From the sequence record OR525698.1: a DNA stretch of 64,000 nucleotides. One strand, written 5' to 3'. The position numbers and the translations under genes are program-made. This DNA is from Escherichia phage vB-Eco-KMB43. Below, piece by piece: positions 25,927 to 32,621 of this stretch (its first letter is position 1; the number at the start of each line of letters is the position of its first letter). Under the pieces are notes generated by a model that was not told the DNA's origin, made no database searches, and saw nothing but the letters and a program-made list of their open reading frames with translations.

Positions 25927-26952
25927 CTAACTTTTTGCGTTATTCACTTCGGCTAAAAGTTCATCAGAAATACGCTTGACCGCCGCAAGTTCTTCCGGTT
26001 CTAGGTTTTGTTCTTCCAGATATTCATAGACCATCTGAATAGTGCTTTTAACTTCAATAACACCTGTTTCCTGTGATGCGCTACTCTCCAGTTTATGGAC
26101 CACTTTTAGCTTGTGTACAACGGCCTCTAACGCGCTTTCTAACTTAGTTAATCCATTATCAGCGACCGTTGCGATAAGACGCACACTAAGCCCTTTAAAG
26201 CGTTCTACATCGATTTTATCATCTGACGGGTAAGTGATACGCACATGATAAGTTTTGTCATTCTGAATAAACTCTTTTTTGTGTGTATCGGTATCGAATA
26301 CCCAAAAACCACGCGGATCGTTTTCGTCACCCGCCGTTAGTGTGTATGGTGTACCAATATACGTTACGTTACCGCCATCACTGATAGTATGAAAGTGACC
26401 CGAAAACACTTCACGGTATTTCTTGAGGAAGTCCGCGCTATAACCTTCGGATTTTAGCCCTTTATAGAAATAGTAACCGGACAATTCCCAATGGCCTACA
26501 CAATATTCGCTGAATGAGTTTTGAATAAACTCTAAAACCTCTGATTTATTGTCATCACAAAACCACGGGAACAGATCAAATGATACACCATCAAAGGTAA
26601 CTGTTTCCGGTTTATCGATAACCTTAATGCAATCATACTGGCTTAACACTTCACGCGGTGCGTTAGGCTGGATCTTGTTTCGTTTAAACATATCATGATT
26701 CCCGACCGTTATATAACAAGTAATACCAGCCTCTTCCAGTAACGGGATGACCTTAGTACGGTTAAATTTCATGGTTTCATGGGTAATTGCTTTTCGGCAA
26801 TCAAACCAATCCCCTGTTTGAATCCATGTCTTAATATTATGCTCTTTGGAGTATTCAACCGCTTTCTTGATGGTATCAAGAATATACTCATGCACCCACG
26901 GATCATCGCCACCGATACCAGTATGCAGATCACCTAAAAGCAAAATTTTCAT
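25927..26952 (-). CDS. 47: recombination nuclease subunit, Mre11/SbcD-like phosphoesterase
   Basis: 341 aa; calcineurin-like motifs GDLHTG, GNHD. Confidence 0.85.
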   Translation of the reverse strand: MKILLLGDLHTGIGGDDPWVHEYILDTIKKAVEYSKEHNIKTWIQTGDWFDCRKAITHETMKFNRTKVIPLLEEAGITCYITVGNHDMFKRNKIQPNAPREVLSQYDCIKVIDKPETVTFDGVSFDLFPWFCDDNKSEVLEFIQNSFSEYCVGHWELSGYYFYKGLKSEGYSADFLKKYREVFSGHFHTISDGGNVTYIGTPYTLTAGDENDPRGFWVFDTDTHKKEFIQNDKTYHVRITYPSDDKIDVERFKGLSVRLIATVADNGLTKLESALEAVVHKLKVVHKLESSASQETGVIEVKSTIQMVYEYLEEQNLEPEELAAVKRISDELLAEVNNAKS

Positions 26953-26993
26953 AGTCTCTTCCTCTCTTCGTTTTCGATGCTCTCACTATATCA

Positions 26994-27020
26994 CAGAAAA
27001 ATAAAAAGGGAAACCCCTTT
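26994..27020 (-). terminator. rho-independent terminator
   Basis: AAAGGG-GTTT-CCCTTT hairpin then TTATTTTT on minus strand. Confidence 0.45.
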
Positions 27021-27043
27021 CAGAGTCTCCCTTATAAAAGCCA

Positions 27044-27331
27044 TTACAGCATACTTAATACCGTTTGCCGTGTACTAATCCACATAGCAGAAAGCAGTTC
27101 TGGCGTGTGTGGCTGTTTGTAGATATCACGTAATTTTCCGATAGCGTAGATATACGCATCACGATTATCATCGATGATAGCTTGTTCAGCCCACCGCTTA
27201 AGGCGTGCAATCTCTCGCGAGTTCTTACGCAAGATCTTTTCCGCTTTCTTAGCGGCTTTAGCCTCTAGTTCTGCTTGTACTTTGTCTACTTCATTCACTG
27301 CAATCTGGTCATGCTGTTCATCGTAAGTCAT
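27044..27331 (-). CDS. hypothetical protein (95 aa)
   Basis: ORF between 55 and 47, where T4 has alpha-gt. Confidence 0.35.
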   Translation of the reverse strand: MTYDEQHDQIAVNEVDKVQAELEAKAAKKAEKILRKNSREIARLKRWAEQAIIDDNRDAYIYAIGKLRDIYKQPHTPELLSAMWISTRQTVLSML

Positions 27332-27332
27332 G

Positions 27333-27566
27333 TTATTTTCCTTCTGGGATATAGTCGATGATTAAAGAAAATTCATCTTCTGATACATTATAGCTATGTG
27401 AGATTGTACCCGTCAAGACCTCAAGATCCGGTGATTTGATATTGCACGGATCGATAATCACCGGAACGCCGCAATCTCTCAAAAATAATTTGGCGAAATA
27501 CGGCACAAGGTCAGTTTCAAACTCTGCTTCTTCCAGCAAACGGGAAATGTTAATTTTCAATCTCAT
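27333..27566 (-). CDS. hypothetical protein (77 aa)
   Basis: ORF between 55 and 47. Confidence 0.3.
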
Positions 27567-28083
27567 AAAATTGGTCCAAGCTAGGCAATTCCTCGGTCAA
27601 TACATCTTCAACCTTTGGCGCTTTCGGTTTATTGACCGATTCCTCGTAGTTGTTGATTTTATCGTAAATGTCCTGTATGAATGCCTCATCAGCAATCTGG
27701 CACATATCAGCGTCGCGTTCGTCATATACATGATGCACAAAATATTTGTATTTTGCGGCTGTCGCTGTTCTCTCTTTTTTAATGCGCTGTACAAAAGCAT
27801 TAAAGCACGCTTGCGTGATGTAAGCATGAGGATTTTTATACTTTGTCTCGTCAAAATTAATCAAACCCTTGACCGCCGCTTCGATTCCATCGTCGATCAT
27901 TTCTTCGCGCCATGTTTGACTATAACCAGAAAAGTTAAAACGACGTGATAGATTTTTAGAGATTTGCATAATTGCCAGGCCGATTTGATCGCTCATTGGC
28001 ACTTGTCGACCTTCTGCCGCAATTCGTTGTTTCCAACGGCAAATTTCTTCGTAAAGCTCTTTATTGTTTACATAATCAGACAC
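27550..28083 (-). CDS. 55: late transcription sigma factor
   Basis: YVNNKEL...RFNFSGY...[22 protein letters not shown] nearly identical to T4 gp55; GTG start with GAGGGTG RBS. Confidence 0.85.
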
Positions 28084-28123
28084 TTCGCACCCTCGCTATT
28101 ATTTAGGAAATAACCCTTTCGGG

Positions 28124-29593
28124 CTATTCCCCATTACCATTATACTTTCTTTGCTTAGTTATCCACACTCTAACCATCTCTACAGATTCACCGTCAGACG
28201 GATCAAGAGTTTTTCCTTTTTTCTTCATGCGGTACTTAAATCCGTTAAATCTTGCATTCTCTTGCTCGTTAAAATCGAACATCTTTTTAAATGATTTTCG
28301 CCCTTTACGCTCACCACATTCTAGCGGAATCATCCGATCTGTTATTACATTGGCATTAGGCAGAAACGTTTTTAGATAATCTACCAACGCCCAATCAGGA
28401 ACATATAGATTAACATTCTCCTTGCTCTCGTTGTCTCTCAAGTTACAACGCAAACATAATTGAAATGCTGGTTCCAGATAATCAGACACATGACGCGCTT
28501 TCAAAAACTCATTTGTTGGGAGATCACAACTATTAGCAAGACCTTTTAAAATATCAATCTCCCATCGTTGAGGGTTAAAGCTGAACATCACAGCAACATT
28601 TTTATGATGAATGTAAGAGTTAAGACCATAAGACCCGTAAGGTATCCGCTCACCAATACCATTTGTGCACGCTTCACGGTCCCGATTCACGGTATAAATG
28701 AAGTCATCACCACATTCATTTTTAACCATATCAACAAGACGTTCAAAGGTATTGTTTGTTTCTGACTGGTGACGCGACCATCGTTCGGAGTCCGTCATAA
28801 GGATGATATTAACTCTATCTGTATTTTTATACTCTTTGAAATATAGTCTGGATTCTAGCGCACTCGGAACAAAATCGCAATTTGCATAGTATCGTAGATA
28901 CTTCCCGCTATATGTATCAAAGAGATTTGCACATGCTATCGTAACCTTTTTAAAGTCTCCCCACGTACCGTGTTTGTTATCGTTCAAGAAAACAATTTTC
29001 GACCCATTCTTCCGGTGTCCTTCGTTATGTTTTACCATAACGTTGATTTTCTTCTCTAATAACGCCTCATAAAGCCCTCTAAGAGAAGAATCGATCATAT
29101 CAGTACCATCCTTCGCACTTTCTATCTTTTCTTTGATAGCGGCCTTCTCAGAGTCTTTTAGAACTAAGTTCTGTAGGCATTCCGATTCGTCGGCGATTGG
29201 TTCGCAATGCTTCGTGATAAGTTCAAGATTAGACTTAAACGGATACTCATTAAATTCAACCAGTTGAGGAACTTCATCAATGTAAAGAGCATAATCACCA
29301 AACATTTTTGAACGTTCCATATTAGATAACGCTGTATGTGTAATGAATATCACATCAGCACCATCTTTAACTGATTGCATTATCGACGCTTGCACTGTCT
29401 TAAGGCTTCTTAGTCTGGTGCTATCAATCAAGACAGCACGACCGCCCATTCTTTTAAACTTATTGTAAGATTGTTCACTTAAAACACGAGATGGCGAAGC
29501 AATAACCGCTTTTTCTTTTGTCTCTAGGACGTGGGAAAGTATAGCATCAGTTTTCCCCGCCGCTGGCAATGCGATTAATGTTTCAATCTTCAT
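28124..29593 (-). CDS. P-loop NTPase of unknown function (489 aa), Cys-rich C-terminal half
   Basis: Walker A ALPAAGKT at residues 8-15, SF2-like Ia PSRVLSEQ, Walker B LYIDEVPQ; no T4 counterpart recognised. Confidence 0.5.
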   Translation of the reverse strand: MKIETLIALPAAGKTDAILSHVLETKEKAVIASPSRVLSEQSYNKFKRMGGRAVLIDSTRLRSLKTVQASIMQSVKDGADVIFITHTALSNMERSKMFGDYALYIDEVPQLVEFNEYPFKSNLELITKHCEPIADESECLQNLVLKDSEKAAIKEKIESAKDGTDMIDSSLRGLYEALLEKKINVMVKHNEGHRKNGSKIVFLNDNKHGTWGDFKKVTIACANLFDTYSGKYLRYYANCDFVPSALESRLYFKEYKNTDRVNIILMTDSERWSRHQSETNNTFERLVDMVKNECGDDFIYTVNRDREACTNGIGERIPYGSYGLNSYIHHKNVAVMFSFNPQRWEIDILKGLANSCDLPTNEFLKARHVSDYLEPAFQLCLRCNLRDNESKENVNLYVPDWALVDYLKTFLPNANVITDRMIPLECGERKGRKSFKKMFDFNEQENARFNGFKYRMKKKGKTLDPSDGESVEMVRVWITKQRKYNGNGE

Positions 29594-29880
29594 TAGAAAC
29601 CCTTACGTCGTGCTTTCTGGCATTTCTTGATCATTTTATCAGAAATTTCGCGCTTAGGTGCAATCTCTTTCACACCGAAAGCACTAATGCCAAATTCAGA
29701 GAGAATATATTCAACTAACAATTCACGCACACGCGCTTTACCGATATTCACGCCGTTATTTTTCAGATATGTCTGGCCTTCGACTTGCATCAGATCTAAA
29801 TCTGCGTCGGTAATATTGATTTCTTCCATGCGCCCAAATCGAGAATAAACCATGTGTGCGATTGCATTGTGTACCAACAT
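29593..29880 (-). CDS. hypothetical protein (about 95 aa)
   Basis: stop overlaps start of the NTPase (TAATG); ATG at 29880 with GAGGA RBS. Confidence 0.35.
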   Translation of the reverse strand: MLVHNAIAHMVYSRFGRMEEINITDADLDLMQVEGQTYLKNNGVNIGKARVRELLVEYILSEFGISAFGVKEIAPKREISDKMIKKCQKARRKGF

Positions 29881-29901
29881 AATATATTCCTCACTCAAGA
29901 A

Positions 29902-30060
29902 TTACTTAATGATACTTACTTTACCAGATCCGTGACAATGAGCGCAACACCCATCACCACGCAATCCTGTTCCGTTACAGTGTTTACACTTCTTCAACGG
30001 TAAAGCCATTATAGCAAATAAAGCAATAATGAACACCGAAACTAAATTCTCAATAATCAT
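29902..30060 (-). CDS. small membrane-anchored zinc-ribbon protein (52 aa, below ORF-track cutoff)
   Basis: hand-translated MIIENLVSVFIIALFAIMALPLKKCKHCNGTGLRGDGCCAHCHGSGK; N-terminal TM helix plus CxxCxGxG repeats. Confidence 0.35.
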   Translation of the reverse strand: MIIENLVSVFIIALFAIMALPLKKCKHCNGTGLRGDGCCAHCHGSGKVSIIK

Positions 30061-30319
30061 AAATCGCCCTCAGTTCTTTATAGCCTCCAATGTGCTCGTT
30101 GTCAATGAATATCTGGGGGTATACAAACCGGAGGCTCTTTGAGTTTAGCCTCCCCGCCAGTTCTTCAATCATATCACGGTCGGGAATAATGTCAACCCCG
30201 ACCTGCTTGAATACTGGTTTAAGTGTATACGGAATACCCAGATCATCCAGTAGCTTCATTGCACTAATACAACCATAACAATGATAAGCCTCTTTCGGTA
30301 TACCGTATATCTCGATCAT
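30050..30319 (-). CDS. glutaredoxin-like protein (NrdH-like)
   Basis: 89 aa; active-site-like CYGC near N-terminus and C-terminal IGGY..L motif; adjacent to anaerobic nrd genes. Confidence 0.55.
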   Translation of the reverse strand: MIEIYGIPKEAYHCYGCISAMKLLDDLGIPYTLKPVFKQVGVDIIPDRDMIEELAGRLNSKSLRFVYPQIFIDNEHIGGYKELRAIYDY

Positions 30320-30819
30320 TTCTCAGCCTTTAATCTTTCCAATTCTTCTTCCAGTTCCTTGATCCGTCGGTCACGTTCAAAGTCACGCTGCAACTTAGTG
30401 GCGAATACTCGTTTAAACTGATTGTAATCATCGATTTTAAACACTTCTTCTTCGCCATAGCGACGTACAGAAACTTCGTAGTTGTTGAAAAATTGTTCCA
30501 ACATTGCATCAGTAGTCAGTTCTGACGACACCACTTTAAAATAACGTTCTTCTGATTGCAAAAACCAGTTGTGCGCGTATTCCCGTACATCATCAACATC
30601 TCGACAGGTGTATGTTTTTCCATCAATTTCAATCGCAGAAACATATTCGATATCTGACGCAATTTTTTCAAAAGCGATAACTTTAAATGTACGGTCACCG
30701 ATAAAGTCTGCTATTGCATCATTTGCAACACTGGTTGCAAATGCTTTCCGCGCTCGATCGTTTTTCCACTGATAGGTCATACCAACAACAAACATATTAC
30801 CAACCTCGCTCTTTACCAA
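30316..30819 (-). CDS. paralog family A member (167 aa), coiled-coil C-terminus
   Basis: shares YQWKND, IEIDGKTY and FATKL motifs with ORFs at 30797-32621 and 36462-39099. Confidence 0.45.
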   Translation of the reverse strand: MVKSEVGNMFVVGMTYQWKNDRARKAFATSVANDAIADFIGDRTFKVIAFEKIASDIEYVSAIEIDGKTYTCRDVDDVREYAHNWFLQSEERYFKVVSSELTTDAMLEQFFNNYEVSVRRYGEEEVFKIDDYNQFKRVFATKLQRDFERDRRIKELEEELERLKAEK

Positions 30820-31621
30820 TCAAAAATTCAACTTCACGACGTTTAATGTCTTCTTGAAGGTCTTTAATCTTCTGGCGATCTTGCATTATTTCGTCCATCT
30901 TGTCAAGTGCTGCGATGAAATCATCGAAACGTTCAAAGGTTTTACCTTCATTTGCTTCGCCAAATTTAACCATTGTCAGGCCGTAACGACTACTAAACAG
31001 ACGTTTCAACTGTCCAACGATTTTAGAATCAGTGGTTATAACTTCCAATTCTTCTACTTCACGAAAGAATTTTCTATCAGAATCAATAAACCAGCTAGTT
31101 CCTTTATGGTCTCTATCTTCGGTTGCGCTCATTAGAGTATGGTCTTTACCATCAATTTCAATTACATCAATTTGCCCACATGGACTAACATTTTTAACAG
31201 TAAAAGGTCTATAATTTATTGCTCGTGCAATAACATAATTAAGGTTAGATACGTTTTCAGCATAATGGCAGAAGTCTGTCATAGCATTCGCATCTTTCCA
31301 AGTATAAGTTTTACCAACTTCCCATTTCTGGGGAACTTCTTCAACTTCACGAAAGAATTTTCTATCGAATGGACTAAAGAAATATGTTGCAGTCCAAATG
31401 TCTTTTCCTGTAGCAGTTTTCGCCGTATGATAAACACCGTCTAGCTCTATTGCATTAATCCAACCGTTGCCATCGATCTCGATGATGGTAAATGGCTTGT
31501 CACCAATAGATGCACTAATATCGCTGTTAAGTGGAGAAAGAACACCTTCTCCGGTAGTAATAAACTCAGTTTTAGCGTTTTCATCTTTCCAAGTGTAAGT
31601 TTTACCAATTTCCCATTTCAT
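30797..31621 (-). CDS. paralog family A member with two tandem domains (274 aa)
   Basis: two internal repeats, each KWE.GKTYTWKD ... RPFTV ... IEIDG ... RKFFREVEE. Confidence 0.5.
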   Translation of the reverse strand: MKWEIGKTYTWKDENAKTEFITTGEGVLSPLNSDISASIGDKPFTIIEIDGNGWINAIELDGVYHTAKTATGKDIWTATYFFSPFDRKFFREVEEVPQKWEVGKTYTWKDANAMTDFCHYAENVSNLNYVIARAINYRPFTVKNVSPCGQIDVIEIDGKDHTLMSATEDRDHKGTSWFIDSDRKFFREVEELEVITTDSKIVGQLKRLFSSRYGLTMVKFGEANEGKTFERFDDFIAALDKMDEIMQDRQKIKDLQEDIKRREVEFLIGKERGW

Positions 31622-31633
31622 AATATATTCCCC

Positions 31634-32134
31634 TTAACCGATTTTATCAAGTTCGTTTAATGCTTTCTCTGCTTCCTGTATAGCTTGCACCCTTTCCGGC
31701 ATTTTGTAAAGAAAATCTTTCAACTCTTCAAAACTGGAGATATGACGCAAGGCGTTAGCACCGATAGCCGCATGTGATTTGCATTCAAAGCGGATTTTAT
31801 AATTATCCATCGCCAATTTGAGAAGGTCTATTAGATCATATTCATGACCAGGTAATAAAACTTCTTTGAAGCACGCTCGGTCACCATCGGAAAACCATAT
31901 ATTATCACCAATATCGATAGAACTAATATAATCCCCTTCGTGATTATAGATTGAACGCACATTACCCCAACGGTCTACCGTAGCGACAGTAAATGGTTTA
32001 TCTAGATATGTAAACATACCATCAATATTAGGTCTTTGTTCGTAACTCCAACAATCACGCAAAATACGCTTTTCGTATTCGCCAACCAACGCATAGGTCT
32101 TACCTTCTTCCCATTTCATAATATTATCTCTCAT
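31634..32134 (-). CDS. paralog family A member (166 aa)
   Basis: MKWEEGKTY ... KPFTV ... CFKEV domain. Confidence 0.45.
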   Translation of the reverse strand: MRDNIMKWEEGKTYALVGEYEKRILRDCWSYEQRPNIDGMFTYLDKPFTVATVDRWGNVRSIYNHEGDYISSIDIGDNIWFSDGDRACFKEVLLPGHEYDLIDLLKLAMDNYKIRFECKSHAAIGANALRHISSFEELKDFLYKMPERVQAIQEAEKALNELDKIG

Positions 32135-32621
32135 TTTTGATACGTGATTCTAATTGGATCATACGGTCGCGCGTTTGCTTGTATTCACGGATAGCACCGA
32201 TCCGGCTAGGCATACCATCTAGGACGCTCTTAATCCCTTCTAGGGTAGTGATTTTAGCAATGCTATTATGTAACCCCATCTTATCGATCAACTGAATGTC
32301 GTAGGCTTCCATAAGCAGACCCAGACGTTCTAAGGTTAGATCTGGTTCTTTAACTTCTTTAAAGAATCGACGTTCACCAGCCCAAAACCACGCACCGTGC
32401 GCACCAATTGGAGTGTCTCGAACAGAAATACATTTACCATCACTTAACGAGATTTCAAGAACATGACCCTCATTACTCATAACCTCGACTGTAAAAGGAC
32501 GTCCATCAAGAAACTCAGCAACTTGACGGTTGATTGACAGTTCAGATTTGGTAAATTCTGCTTTCTTCTCATCACCATCAAGAGTGTACATCTTACCCAA
32601 TTCCCATTTCATAGCAATCAC
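32124..32621 (-). CDS. paralog family A member (165 aa)
   Basis: MKWELGKMY ... RPFTV ... RRFFKEV domain. Confidence 0.45.
   Translation of the reverse strand: MIAMKWELGKMYTLDGDEKKAEFTKSELSINRQVAEFLDGRPFTVEVMSNEGHVLEISLSDGKCISVRDTPIGAHGAWFWAGERRFFKEVKEPDLTLERLGLLMEAYDIQLIDKMGLHNSIAKITTLEGIKSVLDGMPSRIGAIREYKQTRDRMIQLESRIKNER

Follow-up and report, generated by a model that had tools for sequence, protein, structure and literature searches.

SF2-like helicase domains fused to AEP primases were described by Kazlauskas et al. (2018; PMC5862659), who predicted that viruses and plasmids possess a helicase family of their own and named as its closest homologs proteins of 'some T4-like phages' (pVOG1685) and of SPbeta (pVOG9714, UL9-like). 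Nolan et al. (2006; PMC1524935) had listed RB49ORF044c of phage RB49 with a weak DEAD/DEAH match (E 0.069). Here we analyse a 64,000-nucleotide stretch of Escherichia phage vB-Eco-KMB43 (OR525698.1; the window), in which the gene at 28124-29593 on the minus strand encodes a 489-residue protein identical or near-identical to RB49ORF044c (RB49p044). Rather than a new kind of protein, it is a member, so far uncharacterised, of a predicted helicase family.

The family of Kazlauskas et al. is very probably the same one, as both consist of orphan SF2-like helicases of T4-like phages (also PHROGs 2467 and 31024) that have relatives fused to predicted AEP primases. The arrangement differs: in their proteins an All3500-type primase precedes the helicase, whereas in the relatives found here the helicase comes first, N-terminal to a primase-like domain with PriCT. 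The supplements of that study name neither the members of pVOG1685 nor RB49.

Among solved structures the closest fold appears, from the predicted model, to be that of XPD/DinG. Like XPD, Rad3 and DinG, the 489-residue protein is a stand-alone helicase candidate of about 500 residues with an insertion between motifs II and III. It differs from them in sequence, with only 9-15% identity, in the length of the insertion, which is only about 100 residues, and in having no four-cysteine FeS domain: across 24 homologs no conserved Cys lies between Q41 and D106, the interval between motifs Ia and II in which the four cysteines of a 4Fe-4S domain would be found. Some accepted members of that subfamily, CasDinG and Staphylococcus aureus DinG, are likewise reported to lack the FeS cluster. 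Among the helicases of T4 itself, Dda (SF1B) and UvsW (SF2) are comparable as monomeric two-lobe helicases, with roles in origin, R-loop and recombination intermediates, and RB49 also encodes dda.

The gene immediately upstream has its closest described counterpart in T4 gene 55.2, the product of which binds DNA and inhibits Escherichia coli topoisomerase I (PMC4396842). Its mRNA is an early transcript, the protein improves phage fitness, and a preferential action on R-loop-containing DNA was discussed by its authors (PMC4396842).

Fold and motifs of the 489-residue protein

The protein has homologs at 31-74% identity. It was aligned with 24 of them (32-74% identity), which yielded 63 invariant columns, and separately with 101 distant relatives of about 20% identity. 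The features that carry the assignment are the following.

28124-29593, minus strand: gene for the predicted 489-residue SF2 helicase; start overlaps the stop of the 95-residue open reading frame (ORF) as TAATG, with AAGGG 6 nt upstream
29549..29572, minus strand: Walker A (motif I), ALPAAGKT, residues 8-15; P10, G13, K14 and T15 invariant in the 24 homologs
residues 34-41 of the protein: motif Ia, PSRVLSEQ
29264..29287, minus strand: Walker B (motif II), LYIDEVPQ, residues 103-110; D106 and E107 invariant in the 24 homologs and the 101 relatives
28949..29257, minus strand: insertion of about 100 residues between motifs II and III, residues ~113-215
28436..28474, minus strand: motif VI, EPAFQLCLRCNLR, residues 374-386, with the arginine-finger residues; Q378, R382 and R386 invariant

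Motifs I, Ia, Ib, II, III, IV, V and VI are all conserved across the 24 homologs. In that alignment motif Ib reads VIFITHxAL, motif III VTIAxAN (A222/N223), motif IV FIYTxNxxR (FIYTxN at 298-303), motif V PYxxHGLNxY (HGLN at 322-325) and motif VI EPAFQLCxRxNxR (QLCxRxNxR at 378-386). Eight residues, K14, D106, E107, G323, N325, Q378, R382 and R386, are also invariant in the 101 distant relatives. These are catalytic positions that stay invariant at about 20% identity; selection therefore maintains ATPase chemistry in the family. The first-pass annotation, made from the letters of the window, had recognised ALPAAGKT, PSRVLSEQ and LYIDEVPQ and proposed an SF2-like ASCE P-loop NTPase; all three motifs stand at the residues it gave, and their conservation bears the proposal out.

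An AlphaFold2 model built from the 24-homolog alignment has a pLDDT of 87.3 and a pTM of 0.75. Searched with Foldseek against the PDB it retrieves XPD, DinG and CasDinG as top matches (E 5e-11 to 1e-7), with structural alignments to XPD/DinG that span both lobes (313-374 residues). At E <= 1e-3, 182 PDB chains are matched, and of the 50 listed almost all are SF1/SF2 helicases or SecA-type motor ATPases. In the model, lobe 1 comprises residues ~1-112 and 216-250 and lobe 2 residues ~255-420, followed by a basic helical tail at ~435-489. Walker A and B (AAGKT at 11-15, DEVP at 106-109), two tandem predicted RecA-like lobes, which both align to XPD/DinG over 340-366 residues, and lobe-2 motifs IV-VI with their arginine finger, the marks of SF2, are all present. 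We therefore confidently predict, from the model and the motifs, that the gene product is a complete two-lobe SF2 helicase with a second RecA-like lobe in its C-terminal half. The insertion sits where XPD and DinG carry their Arch domain, and may be equivalent to it.

This assignment departs from the description given at first, on which the protein would have a single P-loop NTPase lobe of the terminase-like or PNK-like type. Its C-terminal half was described as Cys-rich, and so possibly a metal binder, and as unlike a second helicase lobe, and the protein would act in a three-gene module with the 95- and 52-residue proteins encoded beside it. The Walker A and B motifs are compatible with that description, as is the tight packing of the three genes with their overlapping stops and starts. 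However, the predicted two-lobe fold, with FIYTxN, HGLN and QLCxRxNxR as motifs IV, V and VI, places a RecA-like lobe exactly where none was seen. The cysteines are not enriched either: there are ten in the protein (2.0%), six of them in the 244 residues of the C-terminal half, and only two of the ten, C130 and C380, are invariant across homologs. No terminase or PNK family is matched in Pfam, PHROG or NCBIfam, and the gene for the 52-residue protein is missing from 27 of 29 related loci, so that the single-lobe description is almost certainly wrong. Among the ASCE classes named at the outset, the SF2-like one was thus recovered and the terminase-like and PNK-like ones were not; no characterised phage housekeeping enzyme was matched, yet its identification as a helicase is confident.

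The gp55.2 homolog and the gene order of the locus

Over the region 27500-30400, identity to RB49-like phages (genus Krischvirus, e.g. FL04, kaaroe and RB49) is 98.7-99.1%. The minus strand carries every gene across this region, transcribed in the order nrdH, 52-residue ORF, 95-residue ORF, helicase, gene 55. The base composition shows no anomaly, and the ORFs at 28124-30060 are real genes. Besides the helicase gene, the locus contains the following features.

30050-30319, minus strand: nrdH
29902-30060, minus strand: 52-residue ORF, the ATG of which overlaps the end of nrdH by 11 nt
29593-29880, minus strand: 95-residue gp55.2 homolog (DUF7570), with GAGG before the ATG and a stop that overlaps the helicase start (TAATG)
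27550-28083, minus strand: gene 55
28104..28133, minus strand: RNA hairpin with a perfect 13-bp stem and a GAAA loop, spanning the helicase stop codon upstream of gene 55

The 95-residue protein is a homolog of T4 gp55.2, as judged from its sequence: it matches Pfam DUF7570 at E 1.4e-28 (99.2 bits, cut-off 27) and T4 gp55.2 at 42% identity (E 7e-20), and its RB49 counterpart, RB49p045, is annotated as gp55.2. The partner that had been treated as unknown is therefore a protein present in T4, although inhibition of topoisomerase I has been demonstrated for the T4 protein only (PMC4396842). Its true start is the ATG at 29880, which has the GAGG ribosome-binding site and is the start annotated in RB49; the program-made ORF list begins instead at the TTG at 29898 (101 residues). 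The TAATG overlap of its stop with the helicase start was confirmed, and the translational coupling proposed from it is upheld as a prediction from sequence.

The gene lies in the same place in both phages, between nrdH and gene 55. What follows it differs: the T4 order is nrdH ... 55.2, 55.1, 55, and the slot that holds the helicase here is taken in T4 by 55.1, an unrelated gene of 87 codons the product of which shows no similarity to the helicase. The absence of the 489-residue gene from T4, as claimed at first, therefore stands.

In a survey of 29 related Straboviridae loci from IMG/VR, a gp55.2 homolog lies upstream of the helicase on the same strand in 28, and in 21 it abuts or overlaps the helicase start. 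The pairing is consequently old and often translationally coupled. Because T4 gp55.2 mRNA is early and the helicase gene appears coupled to the gp55.2 homolog, early expression of the helicase is likely by analogy with T4. The gene is also included in a leftward replication and recombination block of early and middle genes (dda, 61, 41, uvsX, 43, 44/62, 45, 46/47). Scans of the locus for sigma-70 promoters and terminators gave nothing better than shuffled sequence. The hairpin at 28104-28133 has a minimum free energy of -20.3 kcal/mol (z -3.3), and an equally good fold occurred in 0 of 200 shuffles. It is ruled out as a canonical terminator by the lack of a T-run after the stem, and may be a transcript-stability or processing element.

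One annotation at a related locus deserves separate mention. In Aeromonas phage 25, ORF050c (L004 1929-2504) overlaps the helicase start and is annotated as a 'DprA-like DNA recombination-mediator protein'. No Pfam family matches it at E <= 0.01, and it is unrelated to the 190-residue gene upstream of 55.2 in phage 65; lacking Pfam support, the annotation was not used as evidence.

The 52-residue ORF had been described as following the other two genes, with one transmembrane helix and four CxxC-type pairs. On the coding strand it precedes both, its ATG overlapping the nrdH stop, and it has a good ribosome-binding site. The single hydrophobic helix (residues ~5-21, N-terminal) is present, but the cysteines form two CxxCxGxG motifs (C25xxC28 and C39xxC42) plus C38 rather than four pairs. 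The DnaJ zinc finger has four such repeats and two zinc centres; the two repeats here, fused to the hydrophobic helix as they are not in DnaJ, would be enough for a single DnaJ-type zinc centre. Pfam DnaJ_CXXCXGXG scores 14.6 bits on the protein, below the 32.7-bit cut-off, PHROG 3931 is matched at E 4e-10, and no similarity to T4 gp55.3 or gp55.4 was found. The gene occurs in 2 of the 29 related loci, both Krischvirus, and is therefore a neighbour and not part of a conserved module. The three-gene module proposed at first does not hold: in addition, gp55.2 occurs in T4 without the helicase and is separated from it in some phages by inserted genes. Inside the 52-residue ORF, a MotA-box-like TTGCTTTA is followed by TATAAT at ~30005-30027 on the minus strand; a spacing of only 5 nt rules it out as a canonical middle promoter, and RB49 is without motA (PMC1524935).

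Two further observations concern the surroundings. Four tandem paralogous genes (167, 274, 166 and 165 codons) lie between nrdH and nrdG at 30316-32621, minus strand; pairwise identities are 24-34% (E 3e-4 to 1.6e-14), the 274-residue paralog contains two copies of a domain of about 90 residues ('KWExGKTYxW ... FF(R/K)EV'), and the set matches PHROG 5347 and related families of unknown function. On the other side, RB49 carries an HNH/AP2 homing-endonuclease gene, RB49p040 (L001 2400-2954), between gene 47 and a-gt.4, whereas at 26952-27044 of the window gene 47 is directly followed by a-gt.4 with no endonuclease gene between them; this is a presence/absence polymorphism of a mobile endonuclease.

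Distribution and primase-like fusions

The 489-residue gene is present in 243 of 50,697 phage records, and the protein matches PHROG 2467 ('unknown function') at E 3e-175. The helicase is kept at one locus in many genera of Straboviridae: across Krischvirus, Pseudotevenvirus, the Aeromonas phage 25 and 65 groups and Roskildevirus, and at the same locus in T4-like phages of Proteus, Morganella, Serratia and Cronobacter. Among 1.84 billion cluster representatives, the family profile matches 1343 proteins at E <= 1e-3. An extra C-terminal domain was found in 69 of the 190 proteins examined (36%), nearly all of these being 700-900 residues long. It is shared by 65 of 66 fetched relatives longer than 700 residues, and by a 762-residue protein of jumbo phage Atu_ph07 that was fetched separately.

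The extension has invariant DxD and D residues and the motifs RYRVxIPT and FYLPC. It matches Pfam PriCT_1/PriCT_2 and the PHROG 'DNA primase' families 9765 (18 of 44), 2135, 17236 and 3228; a PDB search with a profile of the extension gave nothing useful. From its sequence it would be a primase-like module, probably of the AEP type, with PriCT. A degenerate DNA scan of the genome collection for the extension motif WLDNDGGD located about 30 bacterial loci that encode helicase-primase-like fusions, mostly in Alphaproteobacteria. Their neighbours include tyrosine integrases (at three loci), type I HsdM/HsdS genes and one AIPR gene, and the fusions therefore sit in integrative elements, of which they are presumably the replication protein. 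The helicase family as a whole belongs to viruses, plasmids and integrative elements and is confined to them. The gene contexts in Atu_ph07 and in Pseudoalteromonas phage PH357 consist entirely of hypothetical proteins, the contig encoding relative P0043 had no informative neighbours, and an IMG/VR scan with a single relative of about 800 residues was empty.

Split forms of the helicase-primase relative, encoded by two ORFs, occur in Methylobacterium, Microvirga, Bosea and Salinarimonas: a Walker A ORF of 160-210 residues overlaps by 4 nt an ORF of about 700 residues that contains the remainder of the helicase-primase. The split copies are located as follows.

L084, 277-2978: split helicase-primase
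L104, 417-2980: split helicase-primase
L066, 249-2980: split helicase-primase
L073, 5888-7998: split helicase-primase, truncated at 534 residues where the fetched stretch ends
L046, 1363-3953: split helicase-primase

Since the pattern recurs, the protein is either made as two conserved subunits or joined by a programmed frameshift. Some of the contigs that carry the helicase-primase are very small, namely L104 (4067 bp, coverage 160), L066 (4221 bp), L084 (2983 bp) and L114 (4652 bp). Their size, together with the high coverage of at least one, points to repeated elements or to small replicons in multiple copies. Terminal direct repeats, a sign of circularity, were looked for on the small high-coverage fusion contigs and not found, so that these are plasmid candidates at most.

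The fusions may also account for a label in phage genomes. In some automatically annotated RB43-like genomes the helicase homolog is called 'DNA primase', e.g. in Klebsiella phage phi1_146010 (L002 3501-4928). That homolog is without a primase domain, and the label was probably transferred from primase-fused relatives.

The resemblance of the fused relatives to replication proteins of integrative elements and of jumbo phage Atu_ph07 raises the question of whether the phage helicase is a dedicated replication initiator, that is, a Rep-like or UL9-like origin helicase that derives from a mobile-element helicase-primase Rep and opens a phage origin that it recognises. In one version, gp55.2 would help origins to fire by making negative supercoiling stronger locally or R-loops more stable. 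Several observations are in line with this proposal: one of 44 long relatives has a weak Herpes_ori_bp match (E 0.0086), the sister group pVOG9714 has been linked to UL9 (PMC5862659), RB49 and RB43 are without MotA and the middle promoters that T4 origins use (PMC1524935), and the basic C-terminal helical tail of the model could bind DNA. However, the 489-residue protein itself has no match to Herpes_ori_bp (PF02399) at E <= 1, there are no UL9 proteins among its top 50 BFVD matches, and the gene is missing from many T4-like phages that replicate well. Nor did an origin or iteron come to light, although no search aimed at them was made. MotA and the helicase coexist in phage 44RR and are not mutually exclusive, and the idea that the helicase replaces MotA in origin firing is weakened because 44RR-type phages have both. 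A dedicated initiator is therefore unlikely.

The same set of relatives bears on a role in counter-defence or host takeover, in which the protein, with no direct part in replication, would strip or remodel host or defence complexes, e.g. the R-loops of CRISPR effectors or other proteins bound to DNA. The gene occurs patchily among T4-like genera, and its surroundings are a variable stretch of early accessory genes; its structural neighbours include CasDinG and Hna, a defence helicase, and relatives are found in islands with restriction-modification and abortive-infection cargo. In those islands, however, fusion to a PriCT/primase-like domain indicates a replication module and not cargo. The place upstream of gene 55 is kept across genera at about 35% identity, which is unusual for anti-defence genes with their fast turnover, and no known anti-defence family was matched (PADLOC was not searched). 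We consider this role quite unlikely.

Proposed role

The 489-residue protein is probably an accessory ATP-dependent SF2 DNA helicase or translocase in phage DNA replication or recombination. The conserved motifs, the synteny and the fusion architectures are observed directly, and the fold is seen in a predicted model; that the substrate is DNA, that the role is in replication and that there is any functional link to gp55.2 are conclusions we draw from them. The helicase would open or remodel origin, R-loop or D-loop intermediates and act beside gp41, Dda and other phage helicases. By analogy with XPD and DinG its polarity may be 5'-3'.

A number of results weigh against this proposal. With respect to the family assignment, DEAD is the sole Pfam match above the cut-off (27.3 vs 26 bits) and covers lobe 1 only. 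DEAD_2 and Helicase_C_2 are unmatched by the 489-residue protein at E <= 1 and by 44 long relatives at E <= 0.01, and HBB, the further XPD/DinG model, is also unmatched by the protein. No NCBIfam model was matched, and neither the single protein nor the family profile found useful sequence relatives in the PDB. Since the XPD/DinG models are unmatched and the FeS cysteines absent, polarity and substrate are not confidently transferable. With respect to the role, the phage already encodes gp41 and Dda (uvsW is outside the stretches examined), and the need for a further helicase is not evident. With respect to gp55.2, genes are inserted between it and the helicase in the phage 25 group, in Cronus and in the PS2 group, T4 keeps 55.2 without the helicase, and the gp55.2 HMM had no match beside helicase relatives outside Straboviridae; the adjacency may reflect gene order passed down by descent, with no functional partnership behind it. 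Finally, for every member of the family helicase activity is a prediction from sequence and structure, and the first description was right that the 489-residue protein has no known function, as far as experiment goes.

The DEAD match would also fit a DEAD-box-type RNA helicase with phage mRNA, host mRNA or the degradosome as its target, as no other Pfam family exceeds its cut-off. The DEAD matches cover one lobe, however (~135-165 residues), whereas those to XPD/DinG cover both and score higher. Motif II is DEVP and not DEAD, motif III is (C/x)AN and not SAT, and relatives are fused to primase-like domains; an RNA helicase is thus very improbable.

A bolder extension of the accessory-helicase proposal joins the two adjacent genes. 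The gp55.2 homolog and the helicase would be a working pair, lost by T4, that provides an alternative replication start. By blocking host topoisomerase I locally, the gp55.2 homolog would preserve negative supercoils and R-loops on the phage DNA. The helicase, a helicase half domesticated from the helicase-primase Rep of a mobile element, would use them to open origins or to load the replisome. We regard this pairing as decidedly doubtful. If it were true, RB49 and RB43, which are without MotA-dependent middle promoters, would have a different route of replication start.

What, then, does the accessory-helicase proposal add to the understanding of these phages? On the one hand, the surprise is limited, as the protein belongs to an ordinary class and probably to a family already predicted in the literature. 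On the other hand, four aspects are new: the confident two-lobe model, the strictly conserved catalytic set, the fusions of an N-terminal helicase to a primase-like domain in integrase-bearing elements, and the conserved adjacency to gp55.2. This helicase has never been studied, although the T4-like phages are a reference system for replication and recombination, and its placement in a family gives a concrete, testable function to a widespread 'hypothetical protein'. The conserved adjacency to a homolog of a topoisomerase I inhibitor draws attention to DNA topology, R-loops and replication initiation. The family, with its more than 1300 clusters, links the accessory helicases of phages to the replication modules of genomic islands.

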